DNA of 60,329 bases, the filler included. It is 7 parts of 7 records of this genome, joined end to end, with 100 filler letters (N's around TTAATTAATTAA, not from the genome) between each part and the next. Parts side by side here need not be neighbours in the genome. Positions count along the whole stretch, not along the records: positions 38,113 to 43,735 come from SRR31156797_10329; 6 more parts are not named here. One strand, given 5' to 3'. Below are positions 2,476-51,653 of the stretch, one piece after another. The number at the start of each line of letters is the position of its first letter. The first letter of the stretch is position 1. The translations under genes and the position numbers were made by a program. The notes under the pieces were generated by a model that saw only the letters and a program-made list of their open reading frames with translations, searched no databases and was not told the origin of the DNA.

Positions 2476-2598
2476 GTTGAATCGTATCTGTTGATTAATC
2501 CAAAATTCAGGTTTCATCCCGAAACATGCTCCAGTTCCTTGTGCCGTATCAGCCGTTCTCTTTCTTTCCGGTTGAAGAATATAGCCGATACGAGGGCT
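2476..2598 (-). pseudogene. Degenerate HigA-family antitoxin fragment
   Basis: My translation SPRIGYILQPERKRTADTAQGTGACFGMKPEFWINQQIRFN resembles the HigA C-terminal pattern (TADTA.rL...FG..PEFW.NlQ); no start codon for the fragment. Confidence 0.6.
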
Positions 2599-2777
2599 TT
2601 ACTCTATGACGTTTATGTTTATTCGTCAAGATGTGATGGTCAAGCGGTTTTTCCGGGGGATCGAGCAGGATTAGGCAACATTTTGAGAGAATTGTGCATT
2701 CCAATTTTTTCCGATCGAATCTATGATTGGTCGATCGCTAAAAAGACTCAAAACCAATCAATTAAAAGAGGTGTAAT

Positions 2778-3923
2778 ATGATGAATTTTGACTATTATAT
2801 TCCAACCAAAATATTGTTCGGAGCCGGTAAATTAAACCAGTTGGCCACGGAGAAACTGCCGGGACATAAGGCATTGATTGTCATTTCCTGCGGGACCTCC
2901 ATGCGTAAATATGGGTATCTCGATCGCCTGGAACGTCTGCTGAAACAGCAAAACATTGAATCGGTCGTGTTTGATAAGATCTTGCCCAATCCCATCAAGG
3001 ACCATGTGACCGAAGGCGCTTCCATGGCAAGGGAAAACCGGTGTGACTTTGTCATTGGCCTTGGCGGCGGTTCTTCCATTGACGCTGCAAAATCCATTGC
3101 CGTCATGGCCCGGAATCCGGGAGATTACTGGGATTACATCCATGGCGGAAGCGGTAAAGGCAAACCGGTTGAAAACGGCGCCTTACCCATTGTTGCCATC
3201 ACCACCACCGCCGGAACAGGTACGGAAGCCGATCCGTGGACGGTGATCACCCATGGGGAGGAAAAAATCGGATTCGGCGATCCCTCCTGCACCTTTCCCG
3301 TGCTGTCCGTGGTGGATCCGGAACTGATGACATCCGTTCCCCCCCATTTAACCGCGTACCAGGGCTTTGACGCTTTTTTCCATGCGGCTGAAGGCTTCAT
3401 CGCCAATATCGCAACCCCCGTCAGTGACCTGTATGCCCTGGAAAGCATCCGGCTGCTGACACAATACCTGCCCCGTGCGGTCGAGAACGGCAATGACATG
3501 GAAGCACGCGGGTATGTGGCCCTGGCCAACACCCTTTCCGGCATGGTGGAATCCACCTCCAGCTGCACCTCGGAACACTCACTGGAGCATGCCTTGAGTG
3601 CGTCCCACCATGAACTGCCCCACGGCGCAGGGCTGATCATGCTTTCCGAAGCCTATTTCAAGCATTTTGCGGATAAGGTGCCGGAGCGGTTTGAGCGGAT
3701 GGCTGCGGCCATGGGAGACACTGATTTTATCCGGGCGCTCATCAAACTTCAGGAAAAGTGCGGGGTCCGGGACTTGAAAATGTCGGATTACGGCATTACC
3801 GAAGGTGAACTGGGCGGTCTGGCCAAGAATGCACGCGAAACCATGGGGTTCCTGTACACCCTGGACCCGGTTCCACTTTCGGATGCCGATGCGGAAAGCA
3901 TTTTGCGCGCGTCATTTAAATAA
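2778..3923 (+). CDS. Iron-containing alcohol dehydrogenase
   Basis: 'GLGGGSSIDAAK', 'TTTAGTGTE', 'DAFFHAAE', 'HSLEH', 'HGAGL'; RBS GAGGTG. Confidence 0.95.
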   Translation: MMNFDYYIPTKILFGAGKLNQLATEKLPGHKALIVISCGTSMRKYGYLDRLERLLKQQNIESVVFDKILPNPIKDHVTEGASMARENRCDFVIGLGGGSSIDAAKSIAVMARNPGDYWDYIHGGSGKGKPVENGALPIVAITTTAGTGTEADPWTVITHGEEKIGFGDPSCTFPVLSVVDPELMTSVPPHLTAYQGFDAFFHAAEGFIANIATPVSDLYALESIRLLTQYLPRAVENGNDMEARGYVALANTLSGMVESTSSCTSEHSLEHALSASHHELPHGAGLIMLSEAYFKHFADKVPERFERMAAAMGDTDFIRALIKLQEKCGVRDLKMSDYGITEGELGGLAKNARETMGFLYTLDPVPLSDADAESILRASFK

Positions 3924-8631: not shown

Positions 8632-8731
8632 NNNNNNNNNNNNNNNNNNNNNNNNNNNNNNNNNNNNNNNNNNNNTTAATTAATTAANNNNNNNNNNNNN
8701 NNNNNNNNNNNNNNNNNNNNNNNNNNNNNNN
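8632..8731. other. Artificial contig linker
   Basis: N44-TTAATTAATTAA-N44, stops in all six frames; abrupt GC change. Confidence 0.98.
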
Positions 8732-17396: not shown

Positions 17397-17496
17397 NNNN
17401 NNNNNNNNNNNNNNNNNNNNNNNNNNNNNNNNNNNNNNNNTTAATTAATTAANNNNNNNNNNNNNNNNNNNNNNNNNNNNNNNNNNNNNNNNNNNN
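17397..17496. other. Artificial contig linker
   Basis: N44-TTAATTAATTAA-N44. Confidence 0.98.
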
Positions 17497-30485: not shown

Positions 30486-30585
30486 NNNNNNNNNNNNNNN
30501 NNNNNNNNNNNNNNNNNNNNNNNNNNNNNTTAATTAATTAANNNNNNNNNNNNNNNNNNNNNNNNNNNNNNNNNNNNNNNNNNNN
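30486..30585. other. Artificial contig linker
   Basis: N44-TTAATTAATTAA-N44. Confidence 0.98.
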
Positions 30586-37416: not shown

Positions 37417-38012
37417 ATGTGGAACCGGAAAAGCAACTGGAATCTTATCCTTCTTGCTGTAGTTGTCCTGCTTTTAATAGGCTCTATATTTTTTCTGTGG
37501 CTTAAGACAAATATAGATGTAAGGGCTGTTGTAGAAGAGCAGTACCAGAAGCAGCAACTCCTTTTAACGCGCCAGATTACTACTAGTATGGAGCGTTCCC
37601 TTAATGAAAAAGTGCTGTTGCTTCAGATCATTGCAAAGGCAGATGCAGGTATTCCTCCTGACAAGTTCCAGTCGGACCTTCAAAGTGCCTACGAGATTGG
37701 GGACATGTTTTATGTTTTGGAATATGTAGCAGAGAATGGTACAATTGTTTCGGGATATCCGGAAGAGAATGTTCCCGTAGGTCTTAATCTGTACGAAACC
37801 AATCAGTACAAGGCTTTTGAATGGGTGAAGGATACAGGTGAAGTATATATTACAGACCCGCTAAGGCTTACCGAGGGAAATTACGGATCTTTTATATGGG
37901 TTCCTGTTTATGAGGAAGATGAGTTTAAAGGTATCTTTATTGCTATAATTCAGGAGTCAGAACTCAGGAACAGGTACGTCGTTTCTCAGAACTCATCTAG
38001 TTATGCATATAT
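37417..38012 (+). CDS. Probable sensor histidine kinase N-terminus (TM + Cache-like domain), 3'-partial
   Basis: N-terminal TM, 'YITDP', 'IWVPVY...FKGIFIAII'; follows a response regulator; the kinase core is not in the window. Confidence 0.65.
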
Positions 38013-38112
38013 NNNNNNNNNNNNNNNNNNNNNNNNNNNNNNNNNNNNNNNNNNNNTTAATTAATTAANNNNNNNNNNNNNNNNNNNNNNNNNNNNNNNN
38101 NNNNNNNNNNNN
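38013..38112. other. Artificial contig linker
   Basis: N44-TTAATTAATTAA-N44. Confidence 0.98.
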
Positions 38113-38361
38113 TTTGACTACAACTTTTTTAATGGAGAGCTTGAAGAAATGGGGCTTTATTCACAGATAAAAGCTTCTGAAAACGCTCTGACCCCTCTTC
38201 CAAAATTCACCTATGTCGGAGAATATAAATATGAAAGTAAAGAAGAGCTTAAGAACCTTCTTTATACTGAAGTGAAAAAACTGTTTCAGGCTCACGGAAT
38301 GAACGCCACTCTTTTTATTGGAGTTGCTGAAAAAATAACCTTAGGCATTGAGAGTTTTTAA
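38113..38361 (+). CDS. Hypothetical protein, 5'-partial
   Basis: Frame open from the contig edge (FDYNFFNGELEEMG...); stop 2 nt before the next gene. Confidence 0.6.
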   Translation, partial: FDYNFFNGELEEMGLYSQIKASENALTPLPKFTYVGEYKYESKEELKNLLYTEVKKLFQAHGMNATLFIGVAEKITLGIESF

Positions 38362-38363
38362 TA

Positions 38364-38600
38364 TTGAAAAAAGGTGTTCTAAGCATAAAAGGAACTTTTT
38401 GCGGAGCTTGTTCATACGCAATTGAAAAAGCTGGTCGCAAACTAAAAGATGTTGAAGATATCACCGTAAATGTCGGTCTTAAAACAATAACCGTTCATTA
38501 TATCAAAGACGACTCGACACTTGATAAAATAGTTGATATTGTTGACAAACTTGGTCATAGTTCACAGATTGAAAGATCACGCGGAGAAATAGGTGGCTGA
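38364..38600 (+). CDS. Heavy-metal-associated (HMA/CopZ-like) domain protein
   Basis: 'IKGTFCGACSYAIEK', 'IVDKLGH'; TTG start; overlaps the next gene. Confidence 0.8.
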   Translation: MKKGVLSIKGTFCGACSYAIEKAGRKLKDVEDITVNVGLKTITVHYIKDDSTLDKIVDIVDKLGHSSQIERSRGEIGG

Positions 38601-39543
38601 CAAAAAGAAAAAACTGATCGCGTGGCTGCTTCCAATGAAGCGAGTCTTATACGCATTGATACCGGCATCCATCGCTTCAATTTACTTTTTTGGATGGCGT
38701 GCACTTGCAATGATAATTATTGTAAACATTTTCGGCTTTCTTTCTGAATATGTTTTTGCCCGTCATTACAAAGAACCGGTTAATTCCAGTGTGTTTGTTA
38801 CAAATCTGCTGTTTGCACTCACACTTCCGCCCTCTCTTCCGTTCTGGATGGCTGCAGTAGGAATTATTTTTGCAGTTGTGTTTGGAAAGATGGTCTTTGG
38901 CGGTTTTGGCAAGAACATCTTCAATCCTGCACTTGTTGGAAGAGCATTTATCTATGTAACTTTTGCAGGGTTTATGACAGGTGAATGGGTCGTTCCTTCA
39001 AAATCTCTTTTCGGAGGACTTTTAAGCTGGCAACCGGATGCTGTTACTTCTGCAACGATCTTAACATCCGGAACAATTGACAGCAGCTTTTATCTGATGT
39101 CTTTCTTAGGAAATATTCCCGGAAGTCTCGGTGAAACGAGTGCTCTTGCAATTTTAATTGGAGGTCTTTATCTATACCAGAAAAAGATCGCCAACAGATC
39201 AATAATAAACTGGACCTTTGTGAGTATGGTCTCACTTCAATCAATATTCTACTACACTGGGATAAGTCGCATTGATGCTGCAACTTCTGTTTTTGCCGGC
39301 GGATTTTTACTGGGTCTCTTTTTTATGGCGACAGATCCTGTTTCTGCACCTAAAAAAAAGGAAGCTCAGGTAATATACGGCATATTGATCGGCTCATTGA
39401 CCTCGCTTATCAGAACTTTTTCCGTCTGGCCTGAAGGCATGATGTTCGCCATCTTGCTTGCAAATATGTTCGCACCGGCAACTGACCTTGGAGTTACTGA
39501 ATATCTAAAACGAAAAAAACAAAAAGCGGCGGCAGGATCATGA
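38593..39543 (+). CDS. RnfD/NqrB-family membrane subunit
   Basis: 'GKMVFGGFGKNIFNPALVGRAF', FMN site 'DAVTSAT', 'GSLGETS', 'FFMATDPVSAP', 'EGMMFAILLAN'. Confidence 0.93.
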   Translation: MADKKKKLIAWLLPMKRVLYALIPASIASIYFFGWRALAMIIIVNIFGFLSEYVFARHYKEPVNSSVFVTNLLFALTLPPSLPFWMAAVGIIFAVVFGKMVFGGFGKNIFNPALVGRAFIYVTFAGFMTGEWVVPSKSLFGGLLSWQPDAVTSATILTSGTIDSSFYLMSFLGNIPGSLGETSALAILIGGLYLYQKKIANRSIINWTFVSMVSLQSIFYYTGISRIDAATSVFAGGFLLGLFFMATDPVSAPKKKEAQVIYGILIGSLTSLIRTFSVWPEGMMFAILLANMFAPATDLGVTEYLKRKKQKAAAGS

Positions 39544-40106
39544 GCAGAAAAAGCAAAACAAAAGAACGCATCATGATGGTCGCCTTCATGTTTGGGCTTA
39601 CGACTTTCTTTGTTACAGTCATATCTATTGCGCACATATCAACAAAAAAGACCGTAAAAAGAAATGAATCCTTATTTTTGAAAAGATCTATCCTTTATAC
39701 AGCGCAAATTCAAATTCCTGAAACTCCGGAAAAAGTTGAACAGCTTTTTATGGATACTGTAAAAATATTAAAAAGCGACCCTCCTGCAACTTATGAAGTA
39801 AGTGAAAACAATGAAAAAATTACCATTTATACTGTTTCAGGATCAGGTCTTTGGGGAGAGATAATTGCACATGTCGGATTTAAGAACGATAAGACCATAT
39901 CAGGGATCAGTTTTATAAAGCAGTCTGAAACTCCCGGACTTGGAGCAAGAATTGATGAAACCTGGTTTAAGGAACAGTTTCGAGGCAAAAAAGCTCCTCT
40001 TAAATTTGTGCCTGAAGGAAAAAGCAGTTCTAACGATGAGTTTGACGCTATTACAGGCGCCACAGTAACAACCACAGCTGTCAAAAATATGGTGAACGGA
40101 ATATGA
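39540..40106 (+). CDS. RnfG/NqrC-family FMN-binding subunit
   Basis: 'GSGLWGEI', 'ETPGLGARI', FMN site 'DAITGAT'. Confidence 0.92.
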   Translation: MSRKSKTKERIMMVAFMFGLTTFFVTVISIAHISTKKTVKRNESLFLKRSILYTAQIQIPETPEKVEQLFMDTVKILKSDPPATYEVSENNEKITIYTVSGSGLWGEIIAHVGFKNDKTISGISFIKQSETPGLGARIDETWFKEQFRGKKAPLKFVPEGKSSSNDEFDAITGATVTTTAVKNMVNGI

Positions 40107-40708
40107 AAAAAATTAAAAAACTAACCATTGCCAATCTTGGTAGAGACAATCCTGTTTTTGTACAGATCCTGGGGATATGCTCGACTCTTGCTGTGACAAA
40201 TGTTCTTGAAAATACCGTTGTAATGTCTTTGGGACTTATCTTTGTGACTGCACTTTCAAACACGACCGTTTCAATGCTTAGAAAGTGGATCCCTTCCAGG
40301 ATCAGAATGATGGTCTCTACTTTGATCATTGCTTCTTACGTAATATTTGTTGATATTGTTCTTAAGGCTTATGTTCCCGATGTTTCAAGACAACTTGGAC
40401 CTTACGTTGGACTGATCATAACAAACTGTATAATCATGGGAAGATCGGAAGCTTTTGCACTTAACAATAAGCCCGGCATTTCTTTTGTAGACGGTCTCAC
40501 TTCCGGGATTGGATACTCCTATGTGCTCTTAATTATTGCATTTTTCAGAGAATTAATGGGCAGTGGAACGATCTGGGGAACTCCAGTTCTAGGAGACTGG
40601 TGGGTCAACTGGTCGATCATGGTAATGGCTCCCGGGGCATTTTTCATGCTTGCGATCTTTATTTGGATAGTTAAGGGAAAATTGATCAAAGAGGAGGCAA
40701 CGTCATGA
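40103..40708 (+). CDS. NqrD/RnfE-family membrane subunit
   Basis: 'NPVFVQILGICSTLAVT', 'VGLIITNCIIMGR'. Confidence 0.93.
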   Translation: MKKIKKLTIANLGRDNPVFVQILGICSTLAVTNVLENTVVMSLGLIFVTALSNTTVSMLRKWIPSRIRMMVSTLIIASYVIFVDIVLKAYVPDVSRQLGPYVGLIITNCIIMGRSEAFALNNKPGISFVDGLTSGIGYSYVLLIIAFFRELMGSGTIWGTPVLGDWWVNWSIMVMAPGAFFMLAIFIWIVKGKLIKEEATS

Positions 40709-41304
40709 GTGAATATTCAGGTCTCGGTGTTTTTGCCATCTTCTTTGCTGCGGCTTTTACAAGCAACATTCTTCTTACACTTTATCTTGGAATGTGCAGT
40801 TTCCTTGCGGTTTCAAGAAAAGTAGAAACTGCTTTTGGTCTGGGAATGGCCGTTATTTTTGTCATGACCGCTACAAGTGCGATCAATTGGCTTATACACA
40901 CATTTCTGCTTGTTCCATACAATCTTGAGCACTTCAAATACATTGTTTTTATCATAGTTATCGCCGCTTTTGTTCAACTTGTTGAAATGGTGATAGAAAG
41001 GATAAGCGAACCTCTTTATAACGCTCTTGGGATCTTTCTTCCACTTATCACTGTAAATTGCGCTATTTTAGGTGTGAGCCTTTTTATGATAATTAGAAGC
41101 TATACACTTGCGCAGTCAGTTGCATTTGGAGCAGGAAGTGGCGTTGGATGGCTTATTGCAATAATTGCAATGGCAGGAATCAGACAGAAGATCGAAAAAA
41201 GCAGAATTCCAAAAGGTCTTGAAGGCGCCGGCATCACTCTTATAATTGCAGGGATCATGTCAATGGCTTTTATGGGTTTTACAGGAATGATAGGGTTAAA
41301 TTAA
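40705..41304 (+). CDS. NqrE/RnfA-family membrane subunit
   Basis: 'YLGMCSFLAVS', 'LGIFLPLITVNCAILG'. Confidence 0.93.
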   Translation: MSEYSGLGVFAIFFAAAFTSNILLTLYLGMCSFLAVSRKVETAFGLGMAVIFVMTATSAINWLIHTFLLVPYNLEHFKYIVFIIVIAAFVQLVEMVIERISEPLYNALGIFLPLITVNCAILGVSLFMIIRSYTLAQSVAFGAGSGVGWLIAIIAMAGIRQKIEKSRIPKGLEGAGITLIIAGIMSMAFMGFTGMIGLN

Positions 41305-42410
41305 TGGATTTTCAGTGGATCGAACTTTTTCAAAGCATTCTAATAATTTCAGGCATTGCTGTCTTTCTTGCAATACTCATGGTCATTGCAGATGCAACTG
41401 TTGGGAATTATGGAGAAAAGAAGCTGCTCATCAACAAAGACAAAGAACTTGTTGTTGATGGTGGCACGCCTCTTTTAAATGCTCTTAAAAGCGAAGGTAT
41501 TTTCATTCCTTCTGCCTGTGGAGGTCGCGGTTCTTGCGGACTTTGCAAGATCCAAATCGATTCAGGTGGCGGTGATTTTCTGCCGACTGAACTTCCCTGG
41601 CTAAGTGATGATGAACAAAAGAAAAATATCAGGCTTAGTTGTCAGCTTAAAGTAAAGAATGATATGGAATTGACAGTACCTGAAGAACTTTTTAACATCA
41701 AGGAATTTCAGGCACAAGTGACTGGATTAACTGAACTTACTCACGACATCAAAGAACTTGAGATGACTTTGAAAGACCCTACAGATATCGAATTTAAAGC
41801 TGGACAGTTCATACAGCTTGAAGTTCCTGAATATGAGCTGACAGATGAGCCTGTTTACCGTGCATATTCAGTCTGTTCTCAACCTTCACTCAAAAACAAA
41901 GTGAAACTTCAGATCAAACTTGTACCAAACGGAATATGCACAACTTATGTTCACAAGCACATGAAAGTTGGTGATAAAGCAACAATAAATGGTCCTTACG
42001 GGGATTTTTATTTAAGAGATACCGATAGAGATATTGTTATGATGGCGACCGGTTCAGGAATGGCTCCCATGTGCTCAATACTTCTTGATATGGCTGAAAA
42101 AGCTAATAATAGAAAGGTTACTTTTCTCTTTGGATGTAAGGAAAAATGCGATCTCTTTCTTATTCGAGAAATGGCTGAACTTGAAAAAAGACTCCCTAAC
42201 TTTAAATTTGTTCCATCTTTAAGTCGTCCTGATGATGACTGGGAAGGATCTACCGGCAGATTGAACACTCTTGTAAAAGAACACATCGATGATCCGGAAA
42301 ATACAGAAGCTTATCTATGCGCAGGCACACGAGTTCTTGAATCTTATGGTGAAGCTTTAAAAGAAGCGGGAATTCCCGAAGATCAGGTCTTTTTTGATGA
42401 TTTTGGATAG
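41304..42410 (+). CDS. NqrF-like subunit (TM + 2Fe-2S + FAD/NAD(P)H reductase)
   Basis: 'IPSACGGRGSCGLC', 'RLSCQ', 'RAYS', 'GPYGDF', 'ATGSGMAP', C-terminal 'FDDFG'. Confidence 0.92.
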   Translation: MDFQWIELFQSILIISGIAVFLAILMVIADATVGNYGEKKLLINKDKELVVDGGTPLLNALKSEGIFIPSACGGRGSCGLCKIQIDSGGGDFLPTELPWLSDDEQKKNIRLSCQLKVKNDMELTVPEELFNIKEFQAQVTGLTELTHDIKELEMTLKDPTDIEFKAGQFIQLEVPEYELTDEPVYRAYSVCSQPSLKNKVKLQIKLVPNGICTTYVHKHMKVGDKATINGPYGDFYLRDTDRDIVMMATGSGMAPMCSILLDMAEKANNRKVTFLFGCKEKCDLFLIREMAELEKRLPNFKFVPSLSRPDDDWEGSTGRLNTLVKEHIDDPENTEAYLCAGTRVLESYGEALKEAGIPEDQVFFDDFG

Positions 42411-42419
42411 GAGAAAGCG

Positions 42420-42872
42420 ATGAAACAGTCTCCCGAACTAAAGAAAATTCAGGATCAACTTAAACGCGGCGCTATAACGCCTGAAGGATTTCTGGGAACT
42501 GACAAAAGGAATCTTATCGATATTCTAACCGATGATGATGCGCAAGTTAACAGACTTGGACTCTCGCATGAAGATATCGCCAAAAAAATGAAGTTTTTCA
42601 GAGATGAGGGCTTAAAAGTTGTTGAAGACTGGACTCAGCTAGATCATTTTGAAGTCCTCACTGAAAGCATGAGAGGAAAGTTCCCATGTCCCTTTGGTCA
42701 TCCGGGCATGGTCGATAAGACAAACATCACAGTCGTGAATAAAAAACTCAATAAAAAGATCTTCTTCACCGATCTACAAATTCACTTGATCGAACACCAT
42801 GGTTTTTATCAGGGAAAAGGGTCAAGTTACAGACTTGAACCGAAAGAAATTGCGGAGATCTTGGAAGTTTAG
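42420..42872 (+). CDS. Hypothetical protein with Cys/His motifs
   Basis: 9 nt after the NqrF-like stop, RBS AGGAG; 'GFLGTDKR', 'CPFGHPG', 'HLIEHHGFYQGKGSSYRLEP'. Confidence 0.8.
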   Translation: MKQSPELKKIQDQLKRGAITPEGFLGTDKRNLIDILTDDDAQVNRLGLSHEDIAKKMKFFRDEGLKVVEDWTQLDHFEVLTESMRGKFPCPFGHPGMVDKTNITVVNKKLNKKIFFTDLQIHLIEHHGFYQGKGSSYRLEPKEIAEILEV

Positions 42873-42971: not shown

Positions 42972-43735
42972 ATGAACAAAGGATCTCATTCTGAATTAGA
43001 TAAAAGTTCATACAGCTCACTGCTTAACGAACTAAAAAGCATTCTCAGCAAAGGTCAGGCAAAAGCATATAAAGCCGTTGACAACATCAAAGTTCAAACT
43101 TACTGGCAGATCGGAGAAAGAATTGTTCGGGAAGAATTGAATAATAAAGATCGTGCTGATTACGGAAAACAGCTTGTAAGCCACCTATCTCAAGATCTAG
43201 CTATTTCAAAGAAAAGAATGTATGAAATCGTAAAGTTTTTCAGATGTTACCCAATTGTCCGGACAGTGTCAGGACAATTGAGCTGGAACCATTACATTGA
43301 ACTTATTAAAATACGAACCAATGATGAAAGATTGTTTTATCAATCAAATGCAGCTAACCAAAACTGGAGCATTCGGGAACTCCGCAGACAGATCAAAAAC
43401 AATCTTTTTGACAACACAGCATCAGAAAAAAAGCTCCCCGAAACTATAAAAATGGAACCAGTTAAAACATCTGAAATTTTCAAAGCTCAGTACGACCTAG
43501 GCTTTATTGGAAACTATTCTAATGAAGATGAGCTTGAAACAAAAATATCGAAAAACATCGATAACTTCTTAGTTGAACTTGGCTCTGAAATTTATTATGG
43601 TGGAAGACAAATTCCTATCAAAATCGATGGAAAAAATCATTACATTGATATTCTTCTCTACCATAAAGGAATTCCCTGCAACATTATTGTTGAACTAAAA
43701 ACTCACAAGCTTGATAGCAGAGATATTGGACAGAT
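42972..43735 (+). CDS. DUF1016/YhcG-family PD-(D/E)XK nuclease domain protein, 3'-partial
   Basis: 'YWQIGERIV', 'LSWNHY', 'WSIRELRRQI', 'YIDILLYH...VELK...DIGQ'. Confidence 0.92.
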
Positions 43736-43835
43736 NNNNNNNNNNNNNNNNNNNNNNNNNNNNNNNNNNNNNNNNNNNNTTAATTAATTAANNNNNNNNN
43801 NNNNNNNNNNNNNNNNNNNNNNNNNNNNNNNNNNN
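43736..43835. other. Artificial contig linker
   Basis: N44-TTAATTAATTAA-N44. Confidence 0.98.
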
Positions 43836-51553: not shown

Positions 51554-51653
51554 NNNNNNNNNNNNNNNNNNNNNNNNNNNNNNNNNNNNNNNNNNNNTTA
51601 ATTAATTAANNNNNNNNNNNNNNNNNNNNNNNNNNNNNNNNNNNNNNNNNNNN
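51554..51653. other. Artificial contig linker
   Basis: N44-TTAATTAATTAA-N44. Confidence 0.98.

Follow-up and report, generated by a model that had tools for sequence, protein, structure and literature searches.

The stretch of DNA analysed here, to which we refer as the window (60,329 nucleotides), carries on its contig SRR31156797_10329 an operon of the Rnf/Nqr family of membrane redox pumps. The conserved core of this operon consists of six genes, B, C, D, E and F followed by a gene for a protein of 150 amino acids (aa), which together encode a membrane redox pump of the Nqr branch that has no NqrA, RnfC or RnfB. We propose, with a probability of roughly 0.4, that the complex is a Na+-pumping NADH:rubredoxin-type oxidoreductase, in which the 150-aa protein would act as the docking subunit and electron transfer would be coupled to cation export. 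The layout without NqrA is known and has been in print since 2014, and the present copy is an ordinary member of a widespread uncharacterised Nqr variant. The original prediction for this region had described five genes, at 38593-42410, as a minimal or intermediate Rnf/Nqr hybrid; the observation was confirmed, and its interpretation was partly supported.

The five genes were found to be as the original prediction described them with respect to order, sizes, coordinates, family assignments and cofactor motifs, and all of them lie on the plus strand (Table 1). These genes are real, and the end of the predicted feature at 42410 cuts off the sixth gene at 42420-42872. In subunit B, the flavinylation motif DAVTSAT is present, and its residues D149, A154 and T155 are invariant among the relatives. 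The claim that the first two subunits are Rnf-sized (316 and 188 aa) and lack the long N-terminal extension of NqrB also held: the alignment of B to the 415-aa NqrB of Vibrio cholerae begins only at residue ~133 (position 121 of 406 in the NqrB model), and B therefore lacks the N-terminal ~100 residues. E52, D248 and D298 of B align with E144, D346 and D397 of V. cholerae NqrB, which we take to act in Na+ uptake. A Phe stands at the position of V. cholerae NqrB Gly141, a residue that, like Gly140, presumably matters for the binding of quinone and inhibitors. Subunit C is anchored in the membrane by its N-terminus, carries DAITGAT as its FMN motif and has the size of RnfG (188 vs ~257 aa in Nqr).

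Cys26 and Cys109 of subunit D and Cys31 and Cys119 of subunit E align to the four cluster cysteines of V. cholerae NqrD/NqrE, and the D/E pair thus keeps the four cysteines of the intramembrane 2Fe-2S cluster. Subunit F begins with a hydrophobic, putatively transmembrane (TM) helix and carries CGGRGSCGLC...C113, RAYS, ATGSGMAP and YLCAG; like NqrF, it is predicted to take hydride from NAD(P)H via FAD and a 2Fe-2S cluster. The original prediction had drawn attention to ATGSGMAP and YLCAG, which were read from the translation; at the equivalent places, V. cholerae NqrF has GGGAGMAP and YMCGPP. The two motifs of F are peculiar to the lineage of the window, the consensus of the clade being GGSGMAP / YLCGSPGM, whereas C72, C78, C81, C113, RAYS and GSGMAP are invariant throughout the clade. 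Additionally, two insertions of V. cholerae NqrF are missing from F.

In order to place the complex within the family, the subunits were compared with solved structures, with NCBIfam models and in phylogenetic trees. Among the solved structures, B scored 176 bits with NqrB and 157 bits with RnfD, D 200.6 bits with NqrD and 143.6 bits with RnfE, and E 197.8 bits with NqrE and 178.8 bits with RnfA; C gave 53 and 48 bits with NqrC and 55 bits with RnfG. The best match of F was NqrF (231.6 bits), compared with 113.7 bits for benzoate dioxygenase reductase. Only two NCBIfam models reached their cut-offs, namely the NqrD model PRK09292 with D (239.8 bits, cut-off 235) and the rnfD subfamily model with B (237.6 vs 207.05 bits). 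The Nqr models for B (239.5 bits, cut-off 414), C (82.3, cut-off 144) and E (234.9, cut-off 247.55) remained below, as did TIGR01939 with D (234.4, cut-off 244.85) and, just below, TIGR01941 with F (282 bits, cut-off 295). The Rnf models RnfG (73.4 vs 102), RnfE (169.8 vs 213.4) and RnfA (220.3 vs 229.3) also fell short.

The references for the trees were eight canonical nqrABCDEF loci, all of one phylum, and five canonical rnf loci from genomes that carry the operon or its homologues (hereafter the cassette); four of the five rnf loci show a complete rnfCDGEAB, and the locus of G001 showed neither RnfA nor RnfB. Since NqrD/RnfE and NqrE/RnfA are paralogous, each half of a joint tree roots the other (IQ-TREE, 67 rows, 213 columns). 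In this tree, the cassette D subunits form one clade (91/91) that is sister to NqrD, with a joint clade supported at 100/100, and the cassette E subunits form one clade (96/89) that is sister to NqrE (93/85), with Rnf falling outside these groups in each half. The unrooted tree of B resolves three clean clades, with the cassette B subunits in a clade of their own between NqrB and RnfD. As far as these sequences indicate, the complex is therefore a member of the Nqr branch, with which it shares NqrF, and is sister to the sampled Nqr instead of nesting inside canonical Nqr. The clade may nevertheless sit inside the wider diversity of Nqr, the sample of which comprised eight operons of a single phylum. 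It can also be mentioned that in one canonical nqr operon (L105, G009:C11, 189-2810) nqrA and nqrB share a single open frame of 873 aa, perhaps as a natural fusion of NqrA and NqrB or through an error of assembly.

These results bear directly on the evolutionary reading of the original prediction, namely that the operon is a hybrid, a surviving Rnf-Nqr intermediate from before the fixation of NqrA. The Rnf-like size of B and C, the score of B against the rnfD subfamily model and the position of B in the unrooted tree are all in keeping with such an intermediate. On the other hand, the rooted trees make the clade monophyletic and sister to the sampled Nqr, with Rnf outside. Moreover, an A/C subunit is present in both Rnf and Nqr, so that its absence here is most simply a loss. 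We consequently regard the intermediate as quite unlikely; the simplest history would be an Nqr-type ancestor that already had NqrF and later lost the A/C subunit.

The absence of the A/C subunit was examined in the relatives of the operon. A scan with one genome per species gave 550 confirmed matches, of which the best 80 loci were kept; they span Spirochaetota, Victivallales/Lentisphaerae, Delongbacteria, Kiritimatiellae, Krumholzibacteria, Myxococcota and Bacillota. Relatives of B of ~315 aa number in the thousands (7,967 of 8,000 candidates scored), and the order B-C-D-E-F is found in nearly all of the 80 loci. No full homologue of NqrA, RnfC or RnfB was detected in them by BLAST with 7 NqrA, 5 RnfC and 4 RnfB queries; only 12 weak partial matches of at most 56 bits were obtained, while the references detected one another. 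The gene upstream of B lies on the opposite strand in 38 loci and on the same strand at more than 150 nucleotides (nt) in 8, and no upstream open reading frame (ORF) is visible in 5. Where it is close and on the same strand, it belongs to varied families (22 loci) or encodes an HMA protein (7 loci).

On the contig of the window itself, an HMA gene and a hypothetical ORF occupy the upstream slot and no rnfB follows F, as the original prediction stated. No nqrA was found in the 480 nt upstream of B; because the contig holds only these 480 nt, the window alone cannot prove that nqrA is absent. The closest relative with flanking sequence (L001, 83% identity in B) has the same order, from the 70-aa ORF and the HMA gene through B to the 150-aa gene, and its 3.1 kb of upstream sequence contain no nqrA or rnfC; a DJ-1/PfpI gene, a gene for a 416-aa protein with weak similarity to RelA_SpoT and a Na+/H+ exchanger gene are found there instead. 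In this locus, the DJ-1/PfpI gene (2568-3122) immediately precedes the 70-aa ORF on the same strand, and the exchanger gene is located further upstream on the opposite strand.

Five genomes of relatives, four of them chromosome-level assemblies and one an isolate draft, were additionally analysed; the window's own organism is not among them. In these genomes, PF05896 (NqrA_N) matched only genes of the RnfC type, and a full RnfC was found far from the cassette in all five, in a separate canonical rnf locus. With regard to quinones, neither MenA above its cut-off nor PF02621 (MqnA/D) was found in any of the five, whereas control genomes matched. The description of an Nqr/Rnf-family complex with an NqrF-type NAD(P)H site and without NqrA, RnfC and RnfB thus holds in the 80 related loci as well as in the five genomes. 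Two Victivallales loci deviate in other respects. In L021, B-C-D is followed by an unrelated 485-aa ORF in place of E-F, and in L034 an additional gene for an F-like reductase is found upstream on the other strand; both loci have a rubredoxin gene just upstream of B.

Of the 62 loci in which 480 nt or more are visible beyond F, 59 have a homologue of the sixth gene immediately after it, mostly with gaps of less than 60 nt, and the operon is consequently not the minimal five-gene system that had been suggested. The exceptions are L013, L078 and L080. A 153-aa gene located after F in L013 proved to be unrelated, and long NqrF frames in L023, L040 and L057, which had the appearance of fusions to the sixth gene, turned out to be ORFs extended too far upstream in GC-rich DNA. 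The 150-aa protein has neither a predicted signal peptide nor a TM segment, no Pfam family matched at E<=0.01, and a profile of the family gave 0 matches to the sequences of the PDB. Its AlphaFold2 model is confident (pLDDT 93.9) and shows an alpha/beta fold of three N-terminal helices, a four-stranded sheet and two helices. Foldseek found no match to this model in the PDB at E<=0.001, and the best hit of VIA-align against 48,161 chains had a Z of 2.8; in the ESM Atlas, only unnamed clusters were obtained, one of them with DUF7919 on 13% of its members. Among 36 homologues, the invariant residues include G17, G23, R30, R85, G86, P91, K100, D118, H122 and G128-F129-x-x-G132, and H50 and H127 are nearly invariant.

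An exhaustive profile search with the sixth-gene family returned 1,791 clusters at E<=1e-3, of which 825 reached E<=1e-10. A word-index search had given no longer, fused forms of the gene; such forms were later found by the profile search, in which the 150 best representatives were inspected and 20 of the longer ones were scanned against Pfam. Five of these 20 are fusions to redox proteins. The 150-aa domain is joined to a rubredoxin in P0195, which has three member sequences on three contigs, to a partial rubredoxin in P0205, to a rubrerythrin in P0140 and to a nitroreductase in P0197, and it follows an AhpC/TSA domain in P0219. Six divergent proteins (P0121, P0136, P0199, P0222, P0247 and P0264) contain two to four copies of the domain and no Pfam family, and some of the multi-copy proteins have an N-terminus that resembles a signal peptide; the domain therefore also exists outside the context of the pump.

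The neighbourhood of the cassette was analysed by clustering 660 ORFs from the 80 loci. The most common neighbour families were rubrerythrin (13 loci), desulfoferrodoxin (11), Fur/PerR (11) and a second rubrerythrin-like family (8), followed by a disulfide oxidoreductase (8), ferritin (7), MutY (7) and a PNPOx-like family (7). When seeds were combined with a rubredoxin motif, at least one rubrerythrin, desulfoferrodoxin, Fur, ferritin or rubredoxin gene was found within 5 kb in 23 of the 80 loci, and 24 rubredoxin ORFs were identified in 20 loci. In L016, L017, L029, L064 and L069, a rubredoxin gene and then a rubrerythrin-like gene follow the sixth gene on the same strand at a distance of 70-170 nt. 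Genes for Fur, rubrerythrin, desulfoferrodoxin and rubredoxin are located downstream in L035, L047, L048, L063, L067 and L071, with rubrerythrin missing from L048 and L071, and the set of rubrerythrin, desulfoferrodoxin and rubredoxin is found downstream in L052 and L060 and upstream in L065. A convergent oxygen-defence island is present in Delongbacteria and two other loci (L002, L003, L055 and L061); in L002, it includes a flavodiiron-type (ODP) protein, a ferritin and a flavin reductase. A Pfam scan of complete gene sets showed that the single rubredoxin of G002 lies 78 nt after the sixth gene, and that the cassette locus contains 2 of the 2 rubredoxins of G004, 2 of 3 in G156, the only one in G157 and 1 of 2 in G158; because these genomes were picked for rubredoxin adjacency, the scan shows how rare rubredoxins are in them and not how frequent the arrangement is. 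No ferredoxin or flavodoxin gene and no gene for an extracytoplasmic redox protein recurs among the clustered neighbours.

Two further neighbours recur in Spirochaetota. A MutY-type gene (HhH-GPD + NUDIX_4), another gene related to oxidative damage, lies beyond the sixth gene, in the opposite orientation, in L025, L036, L039, L041, L042, L053 and L075, within 15-72 nt in five of these seven loci; L036 gave two matches, hence 8 in total. A gene for a PNPOx-like flavoprotein lies upstream of B on the opposite strand in L037, L046, L047, L048, L058, L071 and L072, at ~120-230 nt (3.4 kb in L046). A few kb beyond it, a pyridine nucleotide-disulfide oxidoreductase gene is found in all of these loci except L037.

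On the basis of these comparisons, the following path can be proposed. Electrons would enter from NADH at F, pass through the D/E pair to C on the outer face and from there to B, and thereby return to the cytoplasmic face, while a cation, probably Na+, would be exported as in Nqr. The acceptor would be neither quinone nor NAD+, because NqrA and RnfC are missing, B has no NqrA-binding N-terminus and the relatives have no recognisable menaquinone synthesis. It would most likely be a cytoplasmic one-electron carrier of the rubredoxin type, or the rubredoxin-like domains of rubrerythrin or desulfoferrodoxin, and the 150-aa protein would take over from NqrA/RnfC as the subunit for output or docking on the cytoplasmic side. 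The complex could then feed superoxide reductase, the peroxidase rubrerythrin and the O2-reducing flavodiiron proteins, so that the detoxification of oxygen and peroxide in fermentative anaerobes would also export cations. With NADH at ~-320 mV and rubredoxins at ~-60 to +30 mV, the span is ~260-350 mV and is comparable with that from NADH to menaquinone, the reaction assigned to the NQR of Prevotella. The same overall reaction is carried out by the NAD(P)H:rubredoxin oxidoreductases (NROR) of clostridia, Desulfovibrio and Pyrococcus, whose rubredoxin in turn supplies superoxide reductase, rubrerythrin and flavodiiron proteins. These soluble flavoproteins are unrelated in sequence and conserve no energy; in the proposed complex, the electrons would pass through a membrane ion pump. 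We tentatively suggest that the cassette represents a third branch of the Rnf/Nqr family, functionally distinct from the other two, in which NADH:rubredoxin oxidoreduction would pump cations and a 150-aa protein of a new fold would replace NqrA/RnfC as the output module and dock rubredoxin-type acceptors.

Several observations weigh against this proposal. No oxygen-defence gene was found within 5 kb of the cassette in 57 of the 80 loci, nor on the contig of the window, where a DUF1016/YhcG nuclease gene is located downstream. The loci that have such neighbours are mostly from Spirochaetota, and the neighbour events are therefore not all independent. Anaerobes frequently encode rubredoxin anyway (7 of 14 control genomes), the rarity scan concerned genomes chosen for adjacency, and in five further carrier genomes rubredoxin is encoded elsewhere than at the cassette. 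The 150-aa protein contains no obvious redox cofactor motif, and its single Cys is kept in only 60-90% of the homologues. Because a Fusibacter locus and another locus of Bacillota (L078 and L080) do without it, the sixth gene is not indispensable. The window and the seven closest loci carry an HMA gene coupled to B. Furthermore, four of the five fusions (P0205, P0140, P0219 and P0197) are singletons on short metagenome contigs and may be artefacts of gene calling.

The main rival holds that the pump is real, that the 150-aa protein is a factor for assembly, maturation or regulation (compare NqrM/ApbE, or a small regulator resembling helix-turn-helix proteins), and that the acceptor is something else. 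The missing cofactor motif would be expected of such a factor, 5 of the 36 homologues have weak matches to HTH_50 (best E 0.031), L078 and L080 manage without the gene, and the family also includes multi-copy, apparently secreted proteins that are unrelated to the cassette (P0121, P0136 and P0264). Nevertheless, the fusions to rubredoxin, rubrerythrin, peroxiredoxin and nitroreductase fit a partner in electron output and not a chaperone or regulator, and the location of the gene directly after F in 59 of 62 loci points in the same direction. We therefore consider a purely accessory role to be rather unlikely, and the rubredoxin-type acceptor with the 150-aa docking subunit is preferred.

The three remaining explanations are less likely than either of these. 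According to the first, the electrons leave on the outer face and B serves ion handling only. The lack of an output module for quinone or NAD+ would agree with this, and a one-way transfer from NAD(P)H to the outside has been proposed for two-subunit Nqr/Rnf-like systems (PMC10979944, in the part of the text available to us). However, B retains its flavinylation motif with the invariant D149, A154 and T155 as well as conserved residues of the cytoplasmic half, which would be needless if electrons left at C. The sole conserved extra gene encodes a soluble protein without signal peptide or TM segment, the recurrent neighbours and the fusion partners are cytoplasmic, and no extracytoplasmic redox protein recurs beside the cassette; an outer-face exit is thus improbable. 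Similarly, we give little credence to a low-potential carrier, in which a Na+ gradient would drive electrons from NADH onto ferredoxin or flavodoxin, or the reverse reaction would make NADH, as in a second and differently wired Rnf. It is true that the hosts are fermentative anaerobes with ferredoxin metabolism, that the membrane core is homologous to that of Rnf and that an acceptor potential more negative than that of quinone has been speculated upon (PMC5924567, in the portion we could consult). Yet canonical Rnf with RnfC is already present in 5 of 5 genomes, with RnfB shown in 4 of the 5 fetched loci; no ferredoxin or flavodoxin gene recurs next to the cassette, and the neighbours and fusions indicate high-potential partners of the rubredoxin type. 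Finally, that B alone still reduces menaquinone or another lipid quinone is very unlikely: although quinone is reduced at NqrB in Nqr and NqrA has no cofactor (PMC12174285 and PMC4014512, in the passages available), neither MenA above its cut-off nor MqnA/D was found in the five relatives' genomes, and B lacks the N-terminal ~100 residues and has a Phe in the place of Gly141.

The window comprises seven contigs (GC 0.30-0.53) that are joined by six linkers of the form N44-TTAATTAATTAA-N44. Genes on either side of a linker are not true neighbours, and the contigs may derive from different organisms. The operon is located on the fifth contig (38113-43735, 5,623 bp, GC 0.386), which begins 36 nt before the 70-aa ORF. 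Eight plus-strand ORFs are tightly packed on it, with overlaps or gaps of at most 9 nt: the 70-aa ORF, the HMA gene, B, C, D, E, F and the 150-aa gene. The overlaps at B/C, C/D, D/E and E/F amount to 4, 4, 4 and 1 nt, respectively, and the HMA gene overlaps the start of B by 8 nt. A homologue of the 70-aa ORF was found only in the closest relative L001 (1 of 80 loci), and the HMA gene upstream of B only in the 7 closest of the 80 loci, with its CxxC kept; the HMA protein could be a metal chaperone for the iron centre of the pump, or an alternative partner. A scan of the contig for promoters and terminators gave nothing above the shuffled expectation. The remaining contigs of the window were free of genes for rubredoxin, rubrerythrin, desulfoferrodoxin and Fur, and no further gene of the Nqr/Rnf family was found on them. 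An ORF at 37417-38012 with weak matches to dCache_1/CHASE is cut by the end of the preceding contig and is unconnected to the operon.

Table 1. Features of the window in and around the cassette (positions count along the whole window; strand as read in the window).
Feature	Position	Strand	Remarks
Linkers between contigs	8632-8731, 17397-17496, 30486-30585, 38013-38112, 43736-43835, 51554-51653		
Artificial contig junction N44-TTAATTAATTAA-N44	38013-38112	.	operon contig starts at 38113
70-aa ORF	38149-38361	+	GGAG ribosome-binding site; no family match
HMA (CopZ-like) protein, 78 aa	38364-38600	+	PF00403 2.1e-09; FCGAC motif
B subunit, NqrB/RnfD family, 316 aa	38593-39543	+	Pfam NQR2_RnfD_RnfE 2e-87
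C subunit, NqrC/RnfG family, 188 aa	39540-40106	+	Pfam FMN_bind 1e-18
D subunit, NqrD-like, 201 aa	40103-40708	+	Pfam Rnf-Nqr 2.6e-58
E subunit, NqrE-like, 199 aa	40705-41304	+	Pfam Rnf-Nqr 8.2e-57
F subunit, compact NqrF, 368 aa	41304-42410	+	Pfam Fer2 + FAD_binding_6 + NAD_binding_1
Sixth gene, 150-aa soluble protein	42420-42872	+	starts 9 nt after F; own GGAG site; no Pfam family
DUF1016_N + YhcG PDDEXK nuclease gene	42972-43735		100 nt after the operon; truncated by contig end

Compared with Na+-NQR (NqrABCDEF; V. cholerae structures 7xk3 and 8a1u), the cassette shares the NqrF input with its TM helix and its 2Fe-2S, FAD and NADH sites, the NqrD/E-like subunits with four cysteines, the FMN motifs in B and C and the sister position in the D/E trees. 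It differs in the absence of NqrA, in the size of B (316 aa vs ~400-415 aa with the N-terminal extension) and of C (188 vs ~257 aa), in the two insertions missing from F, in the extra conserved 150-aa protein and in the lack of menaquinone synthesis genes in the tested carriers. With Rnf (RnfCDGEAB; 7zc6, 9eri and 8ahx), it has in common a homologous membrane core, B and C subunits of the size of RnfD and RnfG, and a B that exceeds the rnfD cut-off. In contrast to Rnf, it has no RnfC or RnfB, its input module is NqrF in place of RnfB, its D and E subunits cluster with those of Nqr, and the cassette genomes carry a separate canonical Rnf as well.

The original prediction suspected that related hybrids were already catalogued, and such clusters are indeed described. 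An nqrBCDEF without nqrA was reported in Thermotoga (Pseudothermotoga) thermarum and lettingae in 2014 (PMC4148951), and in Clostridium ultunense (PMC5924567) and 'Ca. Izimaplasma' ZiA1 (PMC6256511) in 2018; in the portions of these papers accessible to us, the acceptor was left open in each case. The gene order of this class is the same as in the cassette, a likeness that was drawn from the published descriptions and not from sequence comparison, and the sixth gene, rubredoxin and oxygen defence are not mentioned in the consulted text of these papers. The two-subunit Nqr/Rnf-like flavinylation complexes (Meheust et al. 2021; PMC10979944) also have subunits resembling NqrB/RnfD and NqrC/RnfG, an NAD-binding module and no quinone module; according to the part of that account that was seen, their B is fused to the NAD-binding domain and no longer has a flavinylation site, and subunits D, E and F are missing, whereas the B of the window is unfused and keeps the site. 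The form without NqrA is not treated in the consulted parts of a 2014 evolution study and a 2025 review of Rnf/Nqr. In the open-access full texts of PMC and bioRxiv, we found no biochemistry of this form, and neither its sixth gene nor a connection with rubredoxin was mentioned there. The operon of the window has the six-gene form of the NqrA-less class, with a 150-aa homologue directly after F.

Anaerobic energy conservation relies centrally on Rnf and Nqr, the second of which is also a drug target; to our knowledge, the two are the only characterised members of this family of redox-driven cation pumps. The interest of the present operon lies in its class and not in this copy, since it offers a testable hypothesis for an acceptor that has long been open. 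The sixth gene, its fusions and the neighbourhood of PerR, rubrerythrin, desulfoferrodoxin and rubredoxin reduce the question of the acceptor to one assay, namely that of NADH:rubredoxin activity together with Na+ transport. If the proposal is true, strict anaerobes would energise their membrane by reducing O2, superoxide and peroxide via flavodiiron proteins, superoxide reductase and rubrerythrin, in effect a small "oxidative-stress respiration" that needs neither quinones nor cytochromes. Its confirmation would reveal the purpose of the NqrA position, which holds no cofactor, and would show how quinone-free fermenters power their oxygen defence and even gain energy from it.

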